DNA of 64,000 nucleotides from Phoronis australis (taxonomy: Eukaryota > Animalia > Phoronida): assembly GCA_002633005.1 (NCBI GenBank), contig NMRA01000804.1, forward strand, positions 1 through 64,000. Direction: 5' to 3'. Below are positions 1,790 through 39,200 of the stretch, piece after piece. The position numbers were made by a program, and so were the translations under genes. The first letter of the stretch is position 1; each line of letters starts with the position of its first letter. Below the pieces are notes generated by a model that worked only from the letters and a program-made list of their open reading frames with translations, searched no databases and was not told the DNA's origin.

Positions 1790-4700
1790 CAGGAAGAGAT
1801 AACCAGGAAGGGACAACTAGCAAAACCGCCGTTTTTGACCTCCTTCCCCGGACAAATTTCAGGACTTAAGTTTCGTTTAAAAGGAAACAGATGATTTTAT
1901 CAGAGAGATTAAAGCTTTTTCTTTAGAAGGATATCAAAAAACTCACTTTGCAACCTTAAACAGTGGTGTAATTGTACTTTGAAAATATCGACTTCAGCGC
2001 ACGCAATCGCAATTTCCCACACGCAGTCACGGGTATTTAAGCTTTTCCGTCGATGTATAGATGGCGCAGTAGTCAAGTACTCCCTCATTTGCATATCAAA
2101 TTTGCGTGTGGGAGTTCTGAGACTCTCGTCAGTTTAGTTGTTGTCGAGCGCTTGAGTGGATAAAGCGGTGACCTCCCGCTGAGAGCACGCGCTGATGAAG
2201 ATACAACAGCTAACTCGATCGCTTCGCAATCAGGAGGTGAAAACACTCTAATGACCGCAGTTCTGAATTCCAGCTAAATAAGCCCTATTTCGAGGAGCTG
2301 ATTGAATTGTTTCCGTCCCCAGACTGTGGATTGCAGAGAAGATTAGAATGAGGTCAACATCGAACTTTCTGCGGCTACCTATCGTGTTGACAAAAGTTTG
2401 AAGTGTCAGAACCGTAGACGGAGCGCGCGGGATTCTTTGGTTCCTGTTCTTCTTCAGTTGACGAAAACATTGCTATCGGCATAAAGAATGACCGTGGGAA
2501 ATTCATTTTGAGGTGGACACCTGTATCCAAGAATAAATATTAATACTCTGTAATATCTCACCCTCCGCGTTTCGTTTCTTTGACGTTGTTTGAGGTTGCG
2601 GTATCGTGAAACAACGCCGTCGGGTGAGAGAAGTTTTACCGAATAACTGGAATTGACTCCAGTTCTTTCCTTTAGAATGCCCGGACTCAATTGTGCCATT
2701 TTCTTGGCAAGTCTCTTGCCTGCCGAAAATTTTCTGAGCATTGAAGACATCGGCCTTCTCCTGCGCCAATCAACCTTTTATCTGCTACAGAAATGTTATG
2801 CCTAATTTTCTACCGTTTTAGCACACTTTGTGGCTCTGCTACAATTAGCACTGCCATATTTCTTAATTCCGCCACAGTATGCATACCTGGAAGTTAGTTT
2901 TGCTAAGTGTTTTTCCAAATTAAGCCACAACAGTTGTTCATCATTAAATGCCCCAGATTCCTCGACGCCATGGACACTTCCGTCAACACAAAACGCAACC
3001 TTGCCAGTCTTAAAAATTCGTATATATGTGTTACAATTGCTTCGAAGGACCGGCAGTAACCGTGGCTGGAATGTCGGCAGCTTCGTGACTAAGTCTACTG
3101 CTAACTCCTGTTGAAATTCTCCATACTTCAAAATTCTTGTTTGCAGGTGCTGATAATTGCCTTCAATGGTTTTCATAATAAGAGACTAGAAATCCGAGTT
3201 GTCACACACGCCCACAGGCCTGGTGCTGCCTTACATTTTCATTGGCCACCTTGCTACAGCCGAATTAGTGTCAACATTTGTGGTCACGTGCCGGGTACAG
3301 GCCCATGAGACAATTTGCAGCAACAAATTCAGTACGAATCCATAAACCCTTTTACATGCACAATTAAATGCGCAAAACTGCTCCTGTATTTACAACGAGT
3401 GCGTGTTGAAACACAACATTGACCTTGGACCAAAGATGGCCGTAACCGTGGCTGGAATGTCGGCAGCTTCGCGACTAAGTCTACAGCTAACTCCTGTAGA
3501 AATTCTCCATACTTCAAAATTCTTGTTTGCAGGTGCTGATAATTGCCTTCAATGGTTTTCATAATAAGAGACTAGAAATCCAAGTTGTCACACACGCCCA
3601 CTGGCCTGGTGCTGCCTTACATTTTCATTGGCCACCTTGTTACAGCCGAATTAGTGTCCACATTTGTGGTCACGTGCCGGGTACAGGTCCATGAGACAAG
3701 TTGCAGCGACAAATTCAGTACGAATCCATAAACCCTTTTACACGCACAATTAAATGCGCAAAACGGCTCCTGTATTTCTTAAACCTTTAATTTAATGCTC
3801 AAGCTATACAACGAGTGCGTGTTGAAACACAACATTGACCTTGGACCAAAGATGGACTCTTTGCATCAGGACCTTAGTAAGCGGGGAGAGGGCGAGTGCC
3901 ACCCCCAAAAAATTGCATGCCTCAGGGTTAAACCATGGCAACCGACAAAGGTGTGCAGCTGGGGAAAGATAAAAAAGAAAGACTTCGAATACTGATCAGA
4001 GAGAAAACTCAAGATAACTTTGACAACTCGGTATCAGTGTATGATTTACCATTTGAGGGCCCTGACCAGGACAATTGTTGTTAGGGTCTCCGTTTTTGCA
4101 GCATAGATCGTCTAAGCGCTCTTGAAAATGTGCATTTAATCATTCATGCATGTATTTCGAAAATTCGAGAAAATTTGTAAAGCAAAAATTTTGCGGAGCG
4201 TATTAATTCAGTCCAAGTTTTTGAGTGGTCCATAGGCGGTGCACTACAGGGGGGCTAAGGGGGCTTTAGCCCCCACTTTTTTCAGTGCTGCACCCTCTAT
4301 ACACCTCCGACATGACACTGCCAACTACTCACGAGGGCAAGTTGAGATTCCAAATTCATCAAAAACACAAAACATTAGTGCACAGCACAGAAGCTACCTT
4401 GTAAGAAATGACGATGTGTCACTGAACTTAGTTGAAGGCTGACTTGGGAAAATTCGACCAATCATCAGACCACCATGTCGCAATGAAGTACAATAACGGT
4501 GACAGTGGTAAGTTCATGAATGTCGAACAGCTCTAAATGTTTTATTGAATTAAAAACTAGACTATAGTGAAATTTAAAAAATGCAAACCGTAGATCCTTG
4601 TCCCAGTAGTATTGTGCAATGAATTTTGGTTCTTCGCGGGCTGAATCGTTTGCTAGCCATTCCCGTGCATAGTGCACAGGCTGGGCACGTCATGACTCAG

Positions 4701-10561: not shown

Positions 10562-11681
10562 TCACTGTATGCAGCATTCATCCTTCTTTTTTGGAGCAGA
10601 CGGATAAGACATAGGATATCCAACTGGGTAAGCTGCAGTGCTGGACTGTGGCTCATAGGGGTTACGGTAAATTGGCCTCGTAGCCAAGCCAACATTCAAC
10701 CCACTGGCTGTATCCGCAACACTCACTGGGTTATTAAGGGAAGATACAGGGGTACCTAACTTGGACTTTCGTGGGGTAATGGCAGGTCTTCCCCCAGCAC
10801 TAAGTGGAAGTGCTGACCTCTGTTGTTGGCTCTGTTCATTACCAAGAACCTCACTTTTGACATTTTGACGACTTAGCGAGGGTGCTAATGGATTTCTTTC
10901 AGGGCTAACATTCTTCACCGTGTGAAGACTAATGGCATGTTCATTCCTGTCATTCAGTAGGGGATGTGAAATAGGGGCATGCGAGGTAAAACGGGTGGAA
11001 GGGGTTTGACTTGGAATTACTTCCTTCACAGTCATTGTAGGGACATCGGACACTGGCCTGGTCGGGGGAGCTGGACCGATTTGAACCGAGTTCCTCAAAA
11101 ACTGGACCACAGGAACGCGGTTTCTCGCAGAACTACCTCCAAGCTGCTGGTCAATCTCTGAGTAAGGTGGTGGCATGTCCCCCACAAGGATATCATGGCG
11201 AGACGTAGCGACCTTACCAGAAACTGCTGCAGAAGTTGCAATGGAGGAAGCGGGTTCTAGCATGGACTCAGACGTCAGCAATGGTGAGTCAGTGATGTCA
11301 TTGACTGTATACTGTATAATATACTCGGGGTAACACTGCTGGCGCTCCGTTGCCATGTAAACAGCAGGATTGGCAAAATCATCCAATACTGTGTGAACAG
11401 ACGATGCCTGTGTACCAGATCCAACCAGACCAAGGGCAACACGGCCCACAAACATAAGCAGGGGGCCATCTGCTTTAGATGGCATTAAACGATGCATGAG
11501 GTGAGACGTTTTAGTAAAATAAACGCCGGAACCCAGGTTAACAAGGCCCTCGAGTTGCGGGCACTCAGACAGGAAGTTGTTCTTCACAATAAAGTTGACC
11601 AAATGTTTGTCACATGACCAACCATAGAAAAGCCTTGCTTCAGTATTAGTGCCGCTTGTCTGGGAGAGGTGCCGCCGTTTC
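10562..11681 (-). CDS. PARP12: PARP12/ZAP-like exon 9: PARP core (degenerate), low-complexity tail, CaaX
   Basis: EARLFYG...GSGVYF...MFVGRVALG...NPAVY...QCYPEYIIQY; ends KKKDECCIQ*; acceptor tttcttacag. Confidence 0.9.
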
Positions 11682-14600
11682 CTGTAAGAAACGAGAAAAA
11701 ACTGTCAATAAAATGGTTACACAAGTTTCACATTTACGTGACAAAAAATATAAATCACAACTTCTGGAACTTTCTGTGAAATAATCTTCCCGACAATGTG
11801 GACCAACCTGACTCCTTCTACTGACTGAATGCTTCCGTGAAAAATTTGTCCACCTCTGTCGGTGTTCCTATATACACAACAACTACAAGTCCCTGGAGCA
11901 TGGATCACACGACTTAAATGCATGGAAAATTGACTGATAGTGAATTCCAGAAATTGCGATTGATGATCTTTTCACATCTTGTTATTCACCAGAATGAATG
12001 ATATTGTTCAACGTCTAAGCTTTAGATATGAAACAATAGCAGTCGTCAGTTTAGAAGCAGGAACAAAAATTTGTTGAAGAGTGTTCACTGGCCTTTGTGG
12101 ACATCATTGGCCAAAAATGTGTCATCTGTATCCTTAAGTGGGTGACCACCTTAAGTGGGTGACCACCTTAAGTGGGTGACCACCTTAAGTGGGTGACCAA
12201 TGGTCATCAAACGGCGATACTGTACACTCAAGTCCCATCACACATTTACATTTAAACTCTGATACGCTGAAAACCCGTAAACTTGTGATTTTCTCTCTGT
12301 AGCACTGAATCTATGGAAAATATTGGCCTAATTGGGTCTACCTAAAAAGTTTTCCTGTAATAAAACATCCATTTTTACCCCAAGCGACGGTGCGTTTCTC
12401 TGGATGTTTATTACCACAATAACGCCTCAATTATCACAGCTGCAATCAGTATGAACAACTACTGAAGCAAAATGTACACTGCTGGTGAGCTTAAAACTCC
12501 ATAATCTGTCCAAATCATAAGATAACGCAAAATATACCCGACTTAACAAAGCCACTACCAGGCTGCATCACTAAAGGTCAAATAACCAGCCCTGACCTTA
12601 ATTTTGAATGCATTTTGAAGCCACAACGATGTAATGTCAAAGGTCATAAGTTCACAGTATATGCACATTAGTGAAGTGCAAAAAATTTTTATATCTCTTG
12701 ATGATTTCTAGGAAATAAGACTTGAATTCTTGACTTAGGATTCACTCAAGTTGTTGCTGTTCATAAACCATTAATAGCCGATCAACATCATCAACTTTTT
12801 CGTTTTCTGCTGATACCAATCTCCATAATTTACTTAAACGTGGTACATTTTACTTAAAGGTGATACATTTTACTTGAAGGTCATACATTTTACTTGAAGG
12901 TCATACATTGTACTTGAAGGTCGTACATTTTCCAATCACACTAACGGGACGATTTTCTTAACTATGAATTTAAACTTTGCCTTGAGCCTTTTCCTAGTCA
13001 AAAAATGTCCACTGACATCCTGCTCCCATTTACCCAAATTGTGAGCAATTAAGTGTTACCTGTCATAATCTCTCCACAGTTGGCTGTTAGAGATCTTCTG
13101 AACTTCTCGTATTGTAACCATACCAGCCGGCATGGATTCATGAAACATGTCACGTATTTGCCCAAACTCTTGCTGTTGCAACATAGAGAGAGTGGCACCT
13201 TCATCTCCATCATGGAACACAGGGTCAGGATAGCGTGATGTGAATGGAGCAGAGACAGTTGAGGCTGGAATGACCTGCTTGACTCTCGTGCTGACAGGCT
13301 CTGCACTGGTCAGTAAAGACGGACTGGTCAGTGAAGCTGAACTGGCCAGTAAAGATGGACTAGTCAGTGAAGGTTGACTGGTAAAAGAAGGTGGACTGGT
13401 CAGTGAAACCTGCTTCAGAGCACCAACAATGCTTGGCTGAAACACGTTAGACGATTCCCCTCTGCAACAGATATACATTCACTATAATAATTTGAAAACT
13501 ATAATTTGATCACAGAACTAAAGTTGGTCACCAAGTGTGAAGTTCACATGGATTGTTATAGATGTTCTGCATCCTTGCAAGACAGAAACTATTAACACAG
13601 CAACTTTATAATTACTAGTCGCATTTTCATCTTCAGTGCCACTTTGGATAAAAGATAATTCTAAAGTTGTGTTCAATTCTTGCTTAGTTAAAAAATAATT
13701 ATTTATGATCAACCGTGGCATCACAGAAGGAAAATCTATAATCACTTACTTTATACTAAATATATTTGTTCCCACTACCATGTTTGTACTTTGCCTCCAC
13801 CCCCACGTCACACAACAGCCAACCCCCACCCTTCAATGCCCCACCCCCAAACTATACGTTCAGTCTCATCATGCAAATGCATGTACCTTTTCACAGACAA
13901 CATACAACTTGAATGTTTGGCTAAGTTCAGGTATATATACACACACCGTGACCCCTTACTCGCTTTCCCACTCCATTGCTACACCGTCACACTCACCTTG
14001 CAAGCTCCTGTACCTCTTCAGGACTCACATACAGTGGTCGGCTGCGTATAGGCAGGCGTGTACCTGTCTCCTCGTGCAAGAAGTACATCTCCTCAAAGTT
14101 CACCTCATAGTGGTCGCCATCTGGTGAGCGGAACTTGTACTTTGCCTGACCCTCAGCATACTTCCTCTCCAACTCTTTCATAAAGGGACTACCTTCGTCT
14201 TCCTGTATTAATGACACTTGGGTAAGCGCACTATATATATATGTATATCATGGTTTATGTCCACACAGAACCTGGTTGAGTAGATAAAATTCACAACAGC
14301 ACCCCCTTTGAGATTATTTAGTAATCGTTGGTATTTCATACATACTTGACTATGTGCCAATTTATTTCTCAGAAATTGACCTATCACAAGCTCAATCCCA
14401 TGCAATAAGTCAACAAACAAACAATAAGTTTTACCCGATGTGTCTATTGTCTGGTAAAATGGCGGCTTGGAAACGAAGGTGTGTCAAGAATGCATCGTTC
14501 TGCTTCATCCGTTAACCCGTCACTCAAAATCCCAGCGATGATTCATTGGCTGTTCAGATTCTGATGAAACTTTAAGATATGATGCTGTTTTCTAAAACGC

Positions 14601-17600
14601 TTTTAAATTGCTTTTAAATGTTCTACTTTTGCATGTGGGGCTATAAAAAATTATAGGGATTTTATAATTCCCTAATCATATCAAACAAAATGAAATTTAA
14701 TTTCTCCACTTCTCAAACTAAAACGAGAACAACACACAAGGTTGAAATATGTCCATGACTTCAACGCGAACAATGTGTTTCTAGGTGTTTTTATTAGTAT
14801 CATAAAATGGCCACTAGATGGTGCAGAATACCTCAAAAGCATCCCAAAATGGGAAGATGTCGTAGCCTTTCGGCAAACAGAAAGCTACTTGCTATATTTC
14901 AAGCAAATCAGTACTTGATTACAGAGGCGAACATGAAAAAACAAATTTCCATTAGGAAAAAAGCGACAGTTCAAGAAGTCCATCTAATGGGAATACACTT
15001 TCCAGACTTCCAAAAGATCTTGCTTGGGGGCTTAAGGAGAACCGCAGATACAAAAACTTTCACCAGTGGGCAGCAGAGTGGTTGAATTTCCACAATGAGC
15101 CTCTTAACGGTTAGGCGAATACATAAGGAGATGACTCCAAAAATAACAAAACTGGCCACTAGGTGCATATCTTAAGAAATGAGCGTCTTCCTTGTTAGCG
15201 TATTATTCACAACAAGAAGCTAGAGAGGCAAACATAAAAACAAAAATTACAACAAAGGAGCACAGCGGTAGTCAGAACAATCCAAAAGTCTTAGGCAACC
15301 ATAGTCTCATTTATAGTACAACACTTGCAAAGTTTCACGAAGATCCTTCAAAGGAGATACAGAAGAGCATGTAAAAAAAGACAAAATCACCACCAGGGGG
15401 CAGCCATGGTCTTTCTATCAGGAACACATTTGTCAACTTTTTCAATGATCCTTTAAGTGACTCATTTGATAAAGAGGCAGATGCTAAAAACAAACTCGCA
15501 AAAATAAAAATGTCCACTAGGTGGTGGGAAAATACATCAGATCTGTACAAAAATGCAAGAGCAATGTCATCACCTTTACAGAAATCTATTTGCCAAATTT
15601 CAATCCAACAATCAACAGAGATATAGAGGCAAAATGAATGCAAGGAAAATAAAATTCCCACTAGGGGGCACAGCCGTAGTCGGATTATTGATCTGAAACA
15701 GGTCATAATCCGTCGTCAGTTGACAGGAACACATCAGCAAAATCTCACAGTGGGTTACGAAAACACAGCCATTGACTCAAAAATGCCACTAGGGGGCACC
15801 AAAGTAGTTAAACCTTTCCAAACATCAGTGTTATCTGTGGTCTTCTCATCAGAAACACATCTGCAGCCAAATGAATTTTTACAAAGAACTTTCGAGCAAA
15901 TTGGCTGATAGAGAGGCGGCTGCCAAAAACGGACTAGAAACTTTTAAAAATCACCACTAGGTGGCGCAGAAAATGTCATATTGTTAGAAGACAGGACAGC
16001 ATTATCGTTTCCTCAATAAAAAAACCTATTTGCCAAGTTTCATGAAAATCCAATAACAATGAACTCAGAAAATACACAAGAAAAAGTAAAAATATAAGGG
16101 ACACACCAGTCGTTGGATTGATCTAAACATGTCAGGGCAGACACATGCTAAACTATGTAGGGCATGCATACTAATAACCAAACGCATAACAATGGGAATG
16201 TCTCCTTATATTTGGGGACTATTTTAGTTTAGAGGTTATTTCCAGAATTTTAGAAAATCATGTTGTCAAAAGAAGAAACTTTAGTGTCCCTACATAGTAA
16301 AAATAGGTTTGATTTTAATCCAAAGTTTTGCAGATGATCTTGGCAAAGTAAAGAAAGATTTGAATATTTCTTTTAATTAACTCCCATTATCAAACCCATG
16401 ATACAAAATATGCTTTTGTTTTTATCAATTAAACACTGTTTAGGGGTTTATTCACACTAATTCCATTGCCACGCATGTGTTCTTAGAGACTCTCAACCTT
16501 TGACCTCTTCTACCAAGCAAAACAGATACGTTTGAAAACTTGGGATGACAGTGGGCCAAGTGCACCAATATTGCAAAAGATGATTTACAGTCACGACAAG
16601 GAACTTGGGGTTTATTAAACGTTTTTTGCAACAACATTAGTTGTATATGAAACAAATCAACAACTTCCTGTGCTGTCCATAGCTATTAGAAGATCAAGCT
16701 GAGCAGAGCTTCAGTTTTATGGACGATTCCACCAGCAGGGTGTTAACGTTTGTTACAGTGTGACACACTGACGACTCACACCTGCACCTGGCATGACCAA
16801 GTCTATATACTTCTGTATCAAGACATATTGAATGGGAAAGTGCTTCTATTAGCCACGATTGGGTGAATTTGAAAGGAACTTCACCAGATTTAAAAATTGG
16901 CACCAAAAGCAGCTTTTACCCTAGACAAGTACCAACCATCTGAGCTGAGCCTGCACGGCTGGAGTAGGGCCACCATACGCTGAAAGCTTTCCGGAAAATA
17001 TATGGCTCACAGTGACTAAGTCACCAACCTCATGTTGCTAGAAGTACCTTTGCAGGTAAACATTGTAACCACAATCAACATTTTTTAAAGTAGTCCTTCT
17101 CTCTGTCAAAGAAATGGAAGACTGAACGTCTTTGATGTGAATGTGCTCAGGGTGAAACAACGGAAACGTAGAGGATTATGGGAGATCCCCCATCTACTAG
17201 CCACGCGAGAGGCAGCAGCTCAGACAGGAACAAGATTGTCCACTTCTGTGCTAAACAATGCTTATCTAAGCCAAACTTGAGAGGACTGATAAGAGTTAGG
17301 TAAACACTGTTAGCTAAACAAGTTAGAAGAGGGTAGGACGAGCGCAGGAGAATTGAAAAACAGCACAAGATCAACAGCTGAAATTAAGTGGCGCAACAAA
17401 ATGTTGCAAAAAATGGAGAGGATCGTCATTAAAGGAAACAGCAGCAGCGTTTCTGAGATGTCACCTTGAACGCTTATATCCAATAAACTGTGGTATTGGT
17501 ATCGTTTTACTATGTACCTTGCTTTTTTGCAAAATTTTACTTCACGGACATAGCCACATGACCTAATATATGTCAGATTGGAAAAATGTTAAAAATCAAA

Positions 17601-20600
17601 TTCCACAGGATTAATTTATGCTTTCACAAAATATACACCTTGACTAAGTTAAACAAATTAACCAGGAATAATATACACCTTGACTAAGTTAAACAAATTA
17701 ACCAGGAATTTCTTAAAGATTGCATCACAAATATTACCATAGTGACCCTACGTCAAAGGTAAATAAAAGATTTAGATCTTATACTAAAACTTTGATACCA
17801 ACACGACATAAGTGTAACCTTACCCCTTTCCATTCGCCATTTGGCAATCCATAATACCAACGCCAACGGGTCGAAAAGGGCGAGTTATCTTTGTCTGGGT
17901 TGAAAGGAGGTGTTGACAAGTGACGGATTTCAAATACTTTTACTTCACCACTTCTTTTGTCACAACCAGTTAACTCCATGGAATCAAAGGCAATTTTACA
18001 ATCACCAAAGAAAGGAAGTGGTTCTCTAGAACACATTCAAACGGAAGAGTCAAACTTAGAGCAAGAAAGCAGAAAGTATCACATCATGGCGAATACATTT
18101 AGGGGCCAGTTAACTCACACCACAAGGTGTAACTGAACTCAAGGTAATTAGTTCCCGTATTCAGATCCTGAACCATTACGGAGATGAAGCGCGCTGGTGG
18201 GGAGGATATTCAGGCATGCATGACATCACTAATGGACATTAACAAAGTTGGATGGAGCAGAGCAGTTTCAGAAGAACAACAGTTCTTCACACAGCACGTA
18301 ACATCAAACAAAGAAACATGAATCCAGCTCAACATCCAAATTTAACAGCGGATTTGACTTATGACACATACATAACAATTAAAAAGATTTGAGTATTAAT
18401 TATCACAACCTATAACCAGGATACAGCAAACAATTAAGTCACCTTTGAGACTCGGACTTGACAGGGAAAGTCAGGTTCAGTTTGAGAATGGCTGGATCGC
18501 AGAACTTCTGCTCCAGAACACAGCACCAGTCTCCCTCAAACAGCTTCCAAATGCTCCTCTGATTCACTGTAGTCTTGTATTGCCAGTAGTACGGCAGTTC
18601 ACAATGATGGTTGTGACAGTCAAGGGCACTGGAGACAAGCAAGAGAAGGAGTACAATAGTGATGCTTGTGACAGTCAGAGGCAATGGAGACAAAAAAGGC
18701 AGTACATTAGGGATGGTTGAGGTGTGTGTACACAAGTGGGGTTTACGAAGGCATCCTGCTGGCAGACTTGGGGACGTTATCTGTTCATAACTGAGGTGGC
18801 TATGTAAGTATCATCAAGAGAAGACTGCACTTAAAGTCTTAGTAAAACAACTTTCCAGAGAACTTCACAAAATGTTCATACTCTGACCAGAAGATCGTAA
18901 AGCATTCTGACAAAGCTGTTTACATATTTTCTCTGTGATTCAAGAGCTTTCATTGTGTTGCACTCTACTAAACAGTCGAATCATTTAAACGTGCAGGTAT
19001 TTTAGTTAAAATCCATAAGCACATAATCCTAAAATATGGCATAGCATCCTTTTAAGCAGAACAAACAAACAAACAAACCAACAAACAGCAAATACACTCA
19101 CTAACACTTGTTACTCAGAAAATCCACACAGATGTCTCTGAAGTCATCATCATCATACACACGAACTTCACAGTTATCGTCATCAGAGTCTGTGCCCTGC
19201 CGTTTCATGAATGAAGAGAAGCCACTGTCAGTAGAAATGTTACGATGAAGTTGACTCGTTTTGACACCTTTGGATGAGACCTTATCTCGAGGAGAAGCAA
19301 AGTTGTTGTCAAGATTTGCAAGCATCGAGTCTGTCACATCTGGTTTAGACACCTCAGCCTTTTTCTTTTTCATCTTGTCTTCTTTGGTGGCTGGAAGTTT
19401 CTCCTCTTTCTCCAAAGGTGGTGCTGGTGATGCTGACATAGCCACTTCTTTAACAGATGTGTTAAGTGAAGACGATATTGGTAGAATGACATGTTTGACA
19501 ACTTTTATATCAACTTGGGCTAATCCAAACTTCTTCAAAACATTCATATTTGACTTGATGTTGAGGTCATGCCATTTGCCACATTTCACATTTGACTTGC
19601 AAGTGCCGTCTACATAACCCTGACAGACATGTAGCTTTCCACAAGCCTCAGAACACGAATCTTCGTTATAGGCGGTGCATAGGGCCGGAAAAGAATGCGC
19701 GACGACATACTTAAGATTAACTTTAGACATTCGGTCAAAGCCACGAGTACGGAGAAGCTTTCTTAGTTTGGCATCTTGAAAATCATGAGCTTTTGAACAA
19801 AGCTGATCATGCTCCCTATCTCCAATGTAGTCGCGACAAACATGCAAAAACTTGCAGGTATCGACAGAACAACCAACAGGTGAGTTGTAGTCTTTACACA
19901 ACCAGATAGGGAACTTCAAACAAATCTCCAGCTGTCTATCTGACAGGTAGCACACAAATTCATGAGTGTGATTAAGTAGCCAAGACTGAAAGTTGGATAA
20001 AGTGGTAAACAACTGCAGAACGGCATGGTCCTCAACCAGCACAGAATAGGAGCAGAAACCACCGTGAGACAGCAGCAGTTGCTTGATAGATGTCACTAGA
20101 GTTGCATCACTCTGTTCCTCCACCACTGGTTCCGACGTGACACTCTCTGCATCTGAATCACTGCCACTGCCCAGGACAGAACTCGACAGATTCTCCATGC
20201 TGACGCCAGGCTTCAGCTTCTTTCGGACTCGAGGCGTGCGCTTTGTCTTTTTTGCACTTGCACTGCTCAGTGGCATCTCCTGCTTCAAATCATGCATTGG
20301 CGAAGTACTATCCTCTGATTTCCATCTTACCAACACATTCACCCGCGTGTTTTCGTCTAAAGCGTCCTGGCTAAAACAGTACTCACTTCGCAGACGCATG
20401 CAGTTCTCATCATGATAACTGTGGTTCCTGCTACAGTTGGGCTCCCTACAAACACCCAAGACAAACCAGCGACAGATATGGGCATTCTGACAGTTGATCG
20501 ACTGTCTGCAACCAATAGGTTTATTGTAGTATCTGCAGACGGTGAGAAAACATTGCCTGATGTACTCTAACATTTCATCACTAGAGTTACTGATGATGGG

Positions 20601-23600
20601 CACCTTCCGTGCCTTCAAGACCTTCAGGTTTTGAGGACTGGTGAGCGTATGGCCTAGTTTGCAGGATTCAGTCTTGCATGAACCTCGCTCCAACCACATT
20701 TTGCAGATGTGTAGAAAACCACAGGTGGTGTTGCTACAGTTGCCATTGCTTTTGATGTAAGTAGGACACAGCTTCACTTGCCCCGGCTTCAAAGGTGGGT
20801 TACCATCAGAGGTGGATCTTAAATCTGAAAGTAGAGAGGGAGAGAGCGAAATAAAAATTTGTTAACTTACATAACAATTTGTGAATTTCAATAAAAAATT
20901 AACACAGTTGGACATACGTGTGTGTGTTTGTGTGGATTAAAGCCAGAAATAACTTACCTAAATGCAAAAGCATCCGATTGAGGACCACCGACTTATACAA
21001 ATAAAATAGAATGCAACGTAAAACTAACAAGGAATAGAAACATAACAGTAATTCCTATTTTTATGGCATACGATTAGAACACTGGCATAGGAAATCAGTA
21101 ATGTAAGTACTTCCATAAATAAACAAGTAAATAAAAGTGATCCCTTAGTAATTAAAGGTGTACTACATATTCGCAGACTACAACATGTCTATAAGTAGTA
21201 ACTCATGCATTTTAAGCTATGCATGTATGTGTGCAAAAAATAGCAGAGCTTCTATGGAATTTGTATATGGTTAATCATGGTGGACACTAAGTTGAAGATG
21301 GAGTAGCTTGAGTCAATTTCCTAGTGACTGCTCCTGAAATTCAATAGCGATTCAATACACTACAGCTAGAATTTCTCTTAAGTGCTGAAATTCAATCGCC
21401 ATTCAATACTTTCAATAACCATTCAATTGACTCACAATCAGGTTGGAGGGCAGTGCCAACTGAATTTTCATTCAATAGACATATTCAATAGAAATTCAAT
21501 TTTCTATTGTATCTCAATTAAATCTCAACTGAAACTCAACTTCTCCTTTTCGTATGGGGGATTCTAAGCTAACCCTAAACACTGGCCACCAGGACGCAGC
21601 TTACTTTACTCGGGCAACCCTTAATGTTGAGCCATGCAATGTTTGCACTTGTTCTATTGCTCTATCTGACATCCACTTACCCTGCACACTGTGGTACTTT
21701 CTGATTAAGCTAGACACTGGTGCACTCTGGGGCATCTCGTCAATGTCTCCAACAACAAGCACAGAGCCAAAGATGGTCTTTGTCGCTTTAGTCGTGTCAA
21801 TGTGATACTTGGCTAGAAGTGCCCTGATGTGGGGGTCAGCGAAATTATGGCACTTGCCACATGCCTTGGGCGACTGGCAGGTGCCCAAGGCAAACTTGGC
21901 ACAGACGTGGAGGCGAGAGCATGAGTGGTCGGCACAACCTTCCGGGCTAAAGTTGTAATTCCAGCATACCTGGCCAGAACAGAGAAAAGGATTGGTCTTT
22001 TCTAAGGAGTGTGGTTATTACATAAGTTCATGCCTAGCGTTTACACACGGAGGAAGGTCATGAAACAACAAGCTATCGTAACAAATGAGGAAATGTTTGA
22101 TAAATTCTCTAGTTATACATCTTTTGCCCACAATTCTATAGGAATCGGAGCACTTACTGAAGTGTCGTTTTATTTTGTTGCTTTAGATAATTCGAAGTAC
22201 TGCTTCTAATATGATTTATTTTTCATTTAATGATGTCTCTTGGGGAGCTTAACTCCACAGATGAGATACGCACTCAAGGATGTATTTTTAGACAATAAGA
22301 GAAATGCAGAAAAATTAATCAAACAACGAAAGTCTTATTGTTTTTAACGAACTCTAAACCAGAGTATATGCACTACAGTATGCGAAAACACCTTCAAAAT
22401 TGTGAACGTAACTTCAATAGACAACAATGTTAACATACCTTCAACAGACTGTCTCGGATACAGTCAAGCAGGTGCTCATTGTCGGTGATGGGAACCTTGC
22501 AATGACGCAGTACTTTAATGTTGTGCTCCGTCAGAAAGTTGTGGCACATCGAACAGTGTGGTGGGCAGCGTCTTCCACTCAGCCATGTCTTACACACGTG
22601 CAGGTAAAAACAATCGGGTTAACACAGTTTCCGTTCGACAGATGGTACTGTAGACACAGCTTGGCTTGACTAGGCTGTAGTTGCACATCTGGGAAAAGCA
22701 GGCTCTTTGGCTTCTCTAATGAAAAAGCAGTCAGCATATTAAAGCATTGTCAATCATCAGGGACAATTATGTGTTCTCATAGCCGATACATGTAGATTCG
22801 ATATTTCAAAAAGCTGCGCCCTCTGGTGCAATTCTTGGGAAAGACCGGAGTTGCATTCATGGATGTTTAATGGTGGCTTGTTAGCGTACTTGATGGGAGA
22901 TGCTGGAGCATTTACTTGTGTGCCTGGATATGACTTTACAACAAACAACTAAAAAAGTGCATACAGATCTGAAGCACTATTATAGTGAAAAATATAACAG
23001 TTACTTTGTTTTTTATTAAACTGCTTGTCAGCAAGTTGGAACGACATCCAGATCAAGGCATGATTTAATAGAAGACATTTGATTCAGTGATGGGGTCTAA
23101 CGCTTGCAACATTTTTGTTTGGCTGATTTTCTAAGTGAAAAACATCACTCAACCGCCTGGAGAAAATCAGTTTAAAGATTTAGCAGCATATCTACAAAAT
23201 TTTTGTGAAGGTGTGAAAATATATAGTGAAAAGGGATAGTACACTAAGTATATGTCTTGCAACAAGTTTGACGCCCTTCGTGCTTGCAATTCTAATGCAG
23301 TCTACGTTTGAGCTCGATCTGCGTGACGGTGCACGCTTCAAAAGGCTTGACAGCCTCTTCCATGTCTACTTCTGTCAAATTTTCTGTTTATGAGCCGAAA
23401 CTTGGTTACTCTGGTCAATCCCCGTTTGCAAAGCTACAACTACTTCTTGACTATGTGCACTATGTTTCAGCATATGGGATATTGCCTATTGAATTCAGAA
23501 GTCTATATATTGCTTATTGAATTCAGAAGTCTAAACTGACTTAGCTATCGCCAGGCTGATTGGGTGAAGACTTCATTGACAAATCAGAACGCAGCATTCA

Positions 23601-36200: not shown

Positions 36201-39200
36201 CTGCATTAATGATTTTAAACATTCAAGTGTTGTAACCCATTTTACTAGTACATTTCTAAATATCGATTAATTACAAAGCTACATTTTAGTTCTAAATTAA
36301 ATTTGTTAAACATCTGATGTTCTTGGTGTGTTCGTTGCAGTTCTGTCTGGCTACTTATCACAATCTCTGTAATTACTACTGACTTAACTTTGACAACACA
36401 GCTATTTCATTGTGACAGATTGCTCTTTTCACATGGGTTATTAATTCTGGCGTAAAGTGTGTCAAAGGTTGGCACGACTTTGCTGACCTGCCCAGTTGAT
36501 TGTGAAAGCTAGATGTTACATTTGCAAACCCTTGGGGTGGTGAGGTGACCATTTCAAACACTTGCAGTTTTTGTTTGTTCTCTTTACCTGGATTCTTGAT
36601 TACCTTAAAGGCGAAGGCAACCTTTTTCCATGTCATTTTGAGCTAAAATAAGGTTGGTTGGTTATCCTAGACATATTTTTCACTTAATTACAGCTTTTCC
36701 TAATTTTATTAATTATTCGTCCGCTTTTCCGGAAGTGACGTTTTAGGAGGCAAGCGCTTCCCGCCAATTTCTTTTCACATAGTCTGACTGTGAGAGCTGC
36801 CGAGTCAGTCATTGTTCTATCTCGGTTGTGTTAAGTTCCGTCGTCGTTCGCTTTCATTTACTAGTCAGTCAACATGCCACACTGTTGCTGCGTACCGGGA
36901 TGTAGTAATTATCGGCTCACGCGCGCTTTGGGAGTGCCTTTGCATCGCTTTCCGATGGATGACACACTTCGCCGTACTCGGCTCGTTCGTGTGAAGAACG
37001 CAGCGTTACCCGTCCACGCAACGTACAAAGCAGTGGAGAATTACCGTGTNNNNNNNNNNNNNNNNNNNNNNNNNNNNNNNNNNNNNNNNNNNNNNNNNNN
37101 NNNNNNNNNNNNNNNNNNNNNNNNNNNNNNNNNNNNNNNNNNNNNNNNNNNNNNNNNNNNNNNNNNNNNNNNNNNNNNNNNNNNNNNNNNNNNNNNNNNN
37201 NNNNNNNNNNNNNNNNNNNNNNNNNNNNNNNNNNNNNNNNNNNNNNNNNNNNNNNNNNNNNNNNNNNNNNNNNNNNNNNNNNNNNNNNNNNNNNNNNNNN
37301 NNNNNNNNNNNNNNNNNNNNNNNNNNNNNNNNNNNNNNNNNNNNNNNNNNNNNNNNNNNNNNNNNNNNNNNNNNNNNNNNNNNNNNNNNNNNNNNNNNNN
37401 NNNNNNNNNNNNNNNNNNNNNNNNNNNNNNNNNNNNNNNNNNNNNNNNNNNNNNNNNNNNNNNNNNNNNNNNNNNNNNNNNNNNNNNNNNNNNNNNNNNN
37501 NNNNNNNNNNNNNNNNNNNNNNNNNNNNNNNNNNNNNNNNNNNNNNNNNNNNNNNNNNNNNNNNNNNNNNNNNNNNNNNNNNNNNNNNNNNNNNNNNNNN
37601 NNNNNNNNNNNNNNNNNNNNGCGGGAAGCGCTTGCCTCCTAAAACGTCACTTCCGGAAAAGCGGACGAGTAATTAATAAAATTACGAAAAGCTGTAATTA
37701 AGTGAAAAATATGTCTAGGATAACCAACCAACCTTATTTTAGCTCAAAATGACATGGAAAAAGGTTGCCTTCGCCTTTAATTTTGCCATCTTGAATGCCC
37801 GTAATTGTGTTTGCCTAAGTCAATATTTGTGCTGCTATTTACTGCGAATTGTTTGCGTTAACACTAATCTCTATGGGGAACTGTGTGCTTAAAGAATGCA
37901 ACAGTCAGTTATAGAAGAGACATTATTTTATTAATTTAAACTTATAATCTTACAGTTTGGGAATTGATAGGTTTACAAAAACTGTCGTGGAAATCAAGGT
38001 AGTTTTTAAGACATGTTTGTGCTTTGTGGATCATAACTGGGTCTCATCTCGAAGTTGTTTATGAATTCTCATGGGCCTTTTATTCAAGGCTTTGTGCATA
38101 TATTTGTGTTTTTTTGAATCCTTCCTACTGGATATGATCAAACGTAATCCATTCTAGAGGATGTTATTCAGTTCCCATTCCTTTGTTGCAGGTTCTGAAC
38201 CCTGACTCTGAGTTTCACACCAAGAACCGGTTGTCCAAGCCAGACAGATTATACTGGGAAGACAAGCTGGGGCAAGGGAAAACATTTGGGCAAGGCACAT
38301 CCAACGGATGGTTGACTAACTTTATCAACAGGGTGCGTTACTTGTCATTAGTCTTTTTGCATCCATTAGAAGACAATTTGTCATTATTTTTTTACCTCAA
38401 TACAGCGCCATCTTTGTGGCTTGACCCTTTGTTTTGGTTTCTGATTGCAGCGAGTTCGTGTTGGTAATTACCCATGACGTAATCACAGCACGAATGTCTT
38501 TGAATTTGGATTGTTTTTAACTGAATGCCGAATTCGCTGATGTTCATTTGATGTATTTCATTTCAACTTGACTTGTGTGACACTTAAAATTTTATATAGT
38601 GTAATGTGATATTATTTAGCGGAGCATTTGCGGTGGCATTTAGTGCTTGTAGGGACTCTATTCCAGCTGAACGGTGTCACGTTTTTTCATTAGAAGTTAT
38701 TGCGTGTTGATGGACTTCTTGAGAAGCATCAGCTGATCTCAATTTGGAGACAAGTATCATGATCACTGTGCATTAGATTCTTGCTACAGTTTTGGATTAT
38801 GTAGCACTAACCTTGGGGACTTCAAGATGTTGCCAAGGTAGTAAGTACGGTTGCCATGGAGATGGTTCACAAATCATGGTTTTGGGGTAGAATTTGAAGT
38901 CAGTTTTTAACACTTCTGAATTCCAATTCCAGTGTATTGCGTATGGCATCAGTATGTTTATTTTACTTTATTTTCAGTTTGCCTATAAGGATGGATTCAG
39001 TCATGTTGAGCGCCACCTACGGGCCGAAAACCTTGACTTAGATGTAAGCATCAATTATAGATTGCTAAACTTAATATTCACATTGGTTAATTATACAAAT
39101 GATTTGAAACAAAACTTTATTTAACGTGCATTAAGGCCAGTGTGCCTATATCGGAAATAATGGATTTATTTTCAAAGACCGTATAATGGTTAAATTCCAT

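Follow-up and report, generated by a model that had tools for sequence, protein, structure and literature searches.

The minus strand of the window, by which we mean the whole stretch of 64,000 nucleotides analysed, carries a spliced and transcribed gene of the PARP12/ZAP family in which the PARP domain has likely lost its catalytic activity and has likely been retained as a folded scaffold, and in which the C-terminal CCIQ is predicted to be prenylated. We put the probability of this reading at about 0.65. Judged from its sequence, the gene is a PARP12/ZAP family member with a C-terminal PARP (ART) fold; the domain order is about 13 CCCH fingers, ZnF5-WWE1-WWE2, a linker, the PARP domain, a 248-aa tail and a CaaX box. 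The earlier sequence-only reading had described the PARP domain as a pseudo-enzyme with the catalytic triad of inactive human ZAP, kept for its fold; it was incomplete in that it gave no strand and overlooked both the expanded array of zinc fingers and the CaaX box at the C-terminus.

Gene structure and transcription

The spliced gene model consists of eight GT-AG exons (22439-22618, 21681-21969, 19102-20824, 18443-18628, 17824-18025, 13997-14202, 13060-13461 and 10562-11681), all on the minus strand, with a frame open for at least 1435 aa and no internal stop. Among the joints listed, two of the seven are supported by RNA (18025/18443 and 11681/13060), and the remaining joints are predicted. 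RNA loose ends were found at the 11681/13060 joint in all three RNA runs, and first mates lay on the plus strand, as most stranded libraries would show for a transcript of the minus strand.

The most 5' exon found (22439..22715) encodes a CCCH tandem and contains a one-base frameshift near 22615, where the tblastn match is split (22612/22618); no true gene start was found. It is followed by an exon with a CCCH tandem (21681..21969; gene model and Pfam) and by a large exon (19102..20824) with tandem CCCH fingers of the PARP12/ZAP type and a region of low complexity; this exon matches Pfam zf-CCCH_PARP12 (PF25261) in three stretches (E 7.6e-14) and the ZAP N-terminal domain (E 2.6e-10). The CCCH pattern is matched 11 times in the gene model, and about 13 fingers are counted when one degenerate and one frameshifted finger are included. 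Alignment places a fifth-type CCCH finger and WWE1 in the next exon (18443..18628), which RNA joins to the exon with the end of WWE1 and the start of WWE2 (17824..18025; E 0.001 against the central domain of ZAP). The body of WWE2 (13997..14202; Pfam WWE, E 1.2e-4) lies between predicted splice sites, and this exon gave no significant match in the PDB. The exon at 13060..13461 encodes a linker rich in Ser, Pro and Thr and then the first part of the PARP domain, which weakly resembles the start of a fish PARP (E 0.047); RNA joins this exon to the last one (10562..11681). The last exon, identified by Pfam, RNA depth and the splice to 13060, holds most of the PARP (ART) domain (~11291-11681), the 248-aa Ser/Pro-rich tail and the stop. 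The Atlas clusters for the gene were generic PARP and zf-CCCH only. Within the introns, a short tandem repeat lies at 12143-12199, in the last intron, and in each run a repeat family at 15646-16056 attracted roughly a thousand RNA reads that match it in part.

Two positions of the WWE2 pocket are changed. Tyr (17851-17853) stands at the position matching mouse W585 and human W611, and Phe (14080-14082) occupies the M-x-Q column, in which Gln is the residue of most aligned homologues (fish, frog); we take this column of the fish and frog homologues to be human Q668. W611 and Q668 are described, in the text available from PMC8853533 and PMC9720839, as needed for PAR binding in ZAP. Judging by these residues, PAR reading may be weakened too in the WWE2 of the window.

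The triad and the donor site

The PARP feature sits in a 380-codon open frame (11704-10562, minus strand). When it was compared with the PDB by phmmer, human PARP13 was the top match (E 1.5e-9), followed by PARP12 (E 1e-6). The alignments pair LFYG with LFHG of PARP12 and LFY-A of PARP13, GVYF with GSYF and GIYF, and PAVY with PSIF and PSVF, and a 36-row alignment gave identical triad columns. Y-Y-V of the window thus occupies the PARP12/PARP13 triad positions, an assignment that rests on sequence alignments because the structure comparisons gave no residue pairs. The match to the Y-Y-V of human ZAP, and the codons that the sequence-only reading had picked out by eye, are borne out by both alignments. 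Triad position 1 (11624..11626, read on the minus strand as TAT, 11626-11624) is the Tyr of LFYG and replaces the NAD-binding His, which is found in 33 of the 35 matches of the representative search, the other two having Tyr. Position 2 (11519..11521; TAT, 11521-11519) is the Tyr of GVYF and is retained, as it is in 34/35 homologues; position 3 (11360..11362; GTT, 11362-11360) is the Val of NPAVY, for which the homologues have Ile (27), Val (7) or Phe (1). Pfam PARP matched the domain with an E of 7e-5, under the curated cut-off, and no second PARP domain was found besides this one within the 64-kb window.

The sequence-only reading had named CAT at 11624-11626 in raw reads as a finding that would speak against it. 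RNA runs X6, X7 and X8, with depths of 6.2, 3.3 and 4.7 over 11618-11636, contain no such His allele at their depth of about 3-6, because every A>G change counted sits elsewhere: the per-run totals (3, 3 and 5 for RNA, and 4 for DNA run X1) all fall at other listed sites. At the Tyr codon the window agrees exactly with a DNA contig from X1, which may be the source sample. An assembly error at this codon was rejected on the RNA reads and the X1 contig.

As described in the part of PMC9189837 available, the nicotinamide site consists of two Tyr, a Ser and a Gly, and the His is essential for NAD+ binding; PARP13 (Y-Y-V) is inactive for want of this His, and PARP12 (H-Y-I) is active. Of the nicotinamide-site set, the window retains the Gly and one Tyr, and the Ser and the second Tyr are gone. 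Met (11495..11497) replaces the pocket Ser (the role of which is taken from the same part of PMC9189837), a residue kept in 30/35 homologues, and Leu (11486..11488) replaces the nicotinamide-stacking Tyr, where 33/35 homologues have an aromatic residue (Tyr 27, Phe 6) and human PARP13 has Asn. In addition, Trp (11618..11620) replaces the Thr of the H-G-T motif (Thr 33, Ala 2 among the 35). These changes agree with the earlier remark that the segment after YF lacks the usual Ser and Tyr. When seven donor-site positions were scored, the window kept 2/7, the Gly and the triad Tyr being among the nicotinamide-site residues kept, whereas 7/7 were kept in 26 of the 35 homologues, 6/7 in seven, 4/7 in one and 2/7 in one. 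Because of this difference, the PARP domain of the window is very likely without catalysis. The hallmark of an active mono-ADP-ribosyltransferase, the His at triad position 1, is absent, and Tyr is found there in both the window and the reads. Human PARP13 has Asn for the stacking Tyr and retains the pocket Ser; since the window does not have this Ser, its site, by residue content, is more degenerate than that of ZAP. The term pseudo-enzyme is therefore well supported, with His, pocket Ser and stacking Tyr all lost and with decay beyond ZAP's.

The loop after GRVALG (11384..11428 in the alignment) is shortened, as the sequence-only reading had suspected from a comparison with PARP12. It is 15 aa long in the window, 19-29 aa in 34/35 homologues and 10 aa in one; by our own count from the phmmer alignments it has 27 aa in PARP12 and 20 aa in PARP13. 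This loop presumably lies between strands 3 and 4 and is distinct from the acceptor loop.

Kept fold or decay

An AlphaFold model of the last-exon part of the domain (131 aa) had a pLDDT of 83; its input was a 25-row alignment with 24 of the 35 homologues, mostly His-bearing, and with about 45 N-terminal residues absent, so that the model leans to the family fold. Foldseek returned PARP12 as the top match of the model (E 6e-8), and VIA gave Z scores of 13.8 for PARP13 (rmsd 2.4, 124 aligned) and 13.7 for PARP12 (rmsd 1.9, 121 aligned). Thus the AlphaFold comparison that had been proposed as a check yields a PARP fold. The conserved columns of the last strands (Q-x-Y-P-E-Y-x-I-x-Y) match the consensus. 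Over the whole domain the window loses 19 of 53 conserved columns, the most of any row (median 3), with 11/21 lost inside residues 20-66 versus 8/32 outside, a tilt of the losses to the half with the donor site (Fisher p 0.08, a trend only). Among RNA alleles in the PARP segment, five codons differ silently and two by replacement, both replacements lying before the first strand.

The PARP exon exists in a second copy: over 11214-11536, DNA run X1 yields two distinct contigs at about 85-87% identity; one of them has a 3-base insertion near 11457, and X8 RNA includes reads of one contig. The second copy is probably a paralogue, since the duplicates in other parts of the window that look like haplotypes reach 95-98% identity. 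Its listed changes comprise 11 replacement versus 2 silent codons in one piece and 5 versus 4 in the other, and none of the listed changes affects the Val or brings back the stacking Tyr. This pattern is compatible with relaxed as well as with positive selection. Of the earlier proposal that the domain was kept for its fold, we retain that this is likely, given the conserved core and the PARP-fold model; it is unproven, given an end branch about eight times the median in the tree described below and a second copy with mostly replacement changes.

The same observations bear on a different reading, in which the domain is dead and decaying and is held in frame only so that translation reads through to the CaaX box, the fold having no role of its own. 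The very long branch, the 19 conserved columns lost, the shortened loop and the replacement changes of the second copy all point that way. Read-through needs an open frame only, yet the core glycines, the hydrophobic strands and YPEY are intact, and the RNA alleles in the domain are mostly silent; moreover, fast change is also typical of ZAP's own PARP domain, which is reported in the portion of PMC4038475 available to be under positive selection. We regard simple decay as unlikely. Decay of the whole gene, as a transcribed pseudogene or broken allele in which the triad would have no meaning, is suggested by the existence of the second copy and by the reading frame, which shifts by one base near 22615 of the window. 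Reads with an additional base at 22615, on a haplotype that differs at about ten further sites close by, make up 8/10 in X6, 4/5 in X7 and 0/4 in X8, and an X5 contig carries the base as well. The X8 reads fit a broken allele, but the presence of the base in X6, X7 and X5, the frame open for 1435 aa downstream, the spliced mRNA and the intact C-terminus make a pseudogene highly improbable. The opposite departure from the preferred reading, an atypical but active mono-ADP-ribosyltransferase or a remodelled pocket that binds NAD+ or ADP-ribose, could appeal to the retained Gly and triad Tyr and to the six of 35 homologues in which Val at position 3 occurs together with His. With five of the seven donor-site residues gone, including the His, Ser and stacking Tyr described as needed for NAD+ binding, we consider activity very unlikely.

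Relation to ZAP

The representative search yielded 35 homologues at 29-39% identity and no close relative or orthologue; a word-based search for long homologues matched 0 of 140 candidates with the PARP region and 0 of 3078 with the zinc-finger exon, which is weak evidence. A tree of 37 rows was built from the window, 34 of the 35 matches (the near-duplicate P0019 was dropped) and two added domains, with no mammalian ZAP. In it the end branch of the window measures 4.08 versus a median of 0.49, its placement is weak, and the AU test does not reject its grouping with the Tyr-first domains of fish (p-AU 0.30). The parts of the literature available report that ZAP arose in lungfish and tetrapods (PMC12204182) and that mammalian ZAP is inactive and chicken and alligator ZAP likely active (PMC8102003). 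Because the host is probably an invertebrate and inactivity of ZAP is published as limited to mammals, the His was probably lost separately from mammalian ZAP; our own tree does not show independence. A true ZAP/PARP13 orthologue with an inherited Y-Y-V would account for PARP13 as the best PDB sequence match and for the CaaX box, and the weak placement in the tree leaves room for it. Such an orthologue is hard to reconcile with an identity to PARP13 of only about 29%, with a structure comparison that ties PARP13 with PARP12, with the published origin and mammalian inactivity of ZAP (same partial sources) and with an invertebrate-like neighbouring gene. That neighbour, USP24, matches proteins of bivalves and ticks at 62-63%, and its 5 matches among 46 candidates (proteins of <=2000 aa) include none named as vertebrate. 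Further, about 13 fingers in repeated tandems are found in place of ZAP's four-finger N-terminal domain plus fifth finger; Y-Y-V and the CaaX box are both present but undiagnostic of ZAP, Y-Y-V occurring in a fish domain and a CaaX end in 11/35 homologues. We give orthology with ZAP almost no credence.

The Y-Y-V match itself is less special than it appeared. TAT is one C>T transition from CAT, the middle Tyr hardly varies, and homologues that bear the His often have Val at position 3. In Dallia P0001 the second PARP domain is Y-Y-V, the Esox protein P0018 is Y-Y-I, and the Tyr-first domains of Dallia and Esox form one clade (100/99). On these grounds the special link to ZAP implied by the sequence-only reading was overstated, and identity of the whole triad with ZAP by chance is only modestly unlikely. 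That both non-His matches have Tyr hints that Tyr is favoured as a His replacement, in a search that a Tyr-bearing query biases toward Tyr-bearing homologues. The residues at the triad positions are said to matter for ZAP function in the text available from PMC8568172. The Y-Y-V match would reflect an easy and recurrent route of inactivation and not shared descent. Dallia P0001 is annotated with two PARP domains, H-Y-I followed by Y-Y-V, and may be two fused tandem gene models.

Among known systems, human PARP13/ZAP-L (ZC3HAV1) shares with the window the CCCH fingers, ZnF5-WWE1-WWE2, Y-Y-V, the C-terminal CaaX, the absence of the stacking Tyr and a short loop after strand 3. It differs in having 5 fingers versus about 13; the window also lacks the pocket Ser, has Trp after Gly and Tyr at the W611 position, carries the 248-aa tail between the PARP domain and the CaaX box, is only about 29% identical and probably comes from an invertebrate host. 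PARP12 and invertebrate PARP12-like proteins have an equal domain order and fold, and the family is reported, in the portions of PMC8102003 and PMC4245714 available, from cnidarians, molluscs and lancelet; unlike PARP12, which is H-Y-I, active and without CaaX, the window has a CaaX box and lacks the His. The fish proteins Dallia P0001 and Esox P0018 share the change from His to Tyr at triad position 1, but they keep 6/7 site residues and have no CaaX. Triplophysa P0024 resembles the window in keeping 2/7 site residues and in its long tail (491 aa) ending in a basic patch and a CaaX box; unlike the window it keeps the His and loses other residues. P0024 is possibly a further ZAP-L-like case.

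The CaaX box and proposed function

The protein ends in KKK-D-E-CCIQ (10565..10591, minus strand; CCIQ at 10565-10576), a basic patch followed by a CaaX box with predicted prenylation, and RNA depth is about 10 at this end of the gene. CCIQ is listed in the part of PMC7674641 available as the prenylated CaaX of PDE6A and PTP4A1. CaaX ends were found in at least 11 of the 35 homologues, a floor obtained with our own pattern from sequences some of which are possibly incomplete, versus 8 of 1214 stop-terminated window frames (0.7%). The bearers are two frog proteins, one teleost protein and eight unnamed or hypothetical proteins. The idea that the CaaX box is a second convergence on ZAP was dropped, as 11/35 homologues also end in CaaX. 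According to the text available from PMC8568172, human PARP12 has no CaaX, ZAP-L needs its CaaX, and the dead PARP domain and the CaaX box jointly support ZAP-L function. The gain of the CaaX box is dated to early tetrapods in the portion of PMC12204182 available, a date that fits badly with its presence in the window, a teleost and the eight unnamed or hypothetical homologues. The CCIQ of the window and the CaaX of the teleost suggest, at the level of sequence, that the box is older than early tetrapods or was repeatedly gained.

In the preferred reading, NAD+ could not bind productively to the PARP domain, the zinc-finger array would bind RNA or proteins, and prenylation would tether the protein to endomembranes; the dead domain might offer a partner-binding surface by analogy with ZAP-L. 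The loss would have arisen in the lineage of the window, apart from mammalian ZAP, and the protein may act in innate defence or in the antiviral control of RNA, again by analogy with ZAP-L. A bolder proposal, possible but doubtful, is that a restriction factor resembling ZAP-L was assembled independently in an invertebrate lineage from a multi-finger RNA sensor, a dead Y-Y-V scaffold and a prenyl anchor, with Tyr favoured by plugging the NAD pocket and with a CaaX box far older than tetrapods. If this were true, the ancient CaaX anchor would contradict the published stepwise model of ZAP evolution. The function of ZAP's dead PARP domain is described as still open in the section of PMC11372611 available, and a distant, independently inactivated, membrane-targeted relative would lend itself to comparison on the question of which features the fold has to retain. 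Pseudo-PARPs are already known, so the surprise is moderate. We found no inactive or prenylated invertebrate PARP12-like protein in the portions of the full-text literature available; the CAAX table that supplements PMC12204182 and the invertebrate sequences that supplement PMC8102003 may be relevant to how new this case is.

Elsewhere in the window, two minus-strand open frames (107 and 127 aa) without a Pfam match lie at 2457-3777, together with a 340-base direct repeat at 96%. The USP24-like gene is a multi-exon gene on the plus strand (28335-64000) with a UBA domain and runs past the window end; its exons are 31-77% identical to two bivalve USP24 proteins. Between 27125 and 42626, blocks of 0.5-3.5 kb are duplicated at 95-98% beside N gaps, with the first USP24 exons doubled, and these duplicates are likely uncollapsed haplotypes in the assembly. 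The start of a THAP domain (36865-37050, plus strand; Pfam E 2e-4) leads into an N gap of 571 bases within an intron of USP24, and this fragment is likely a transposon-derived gene.
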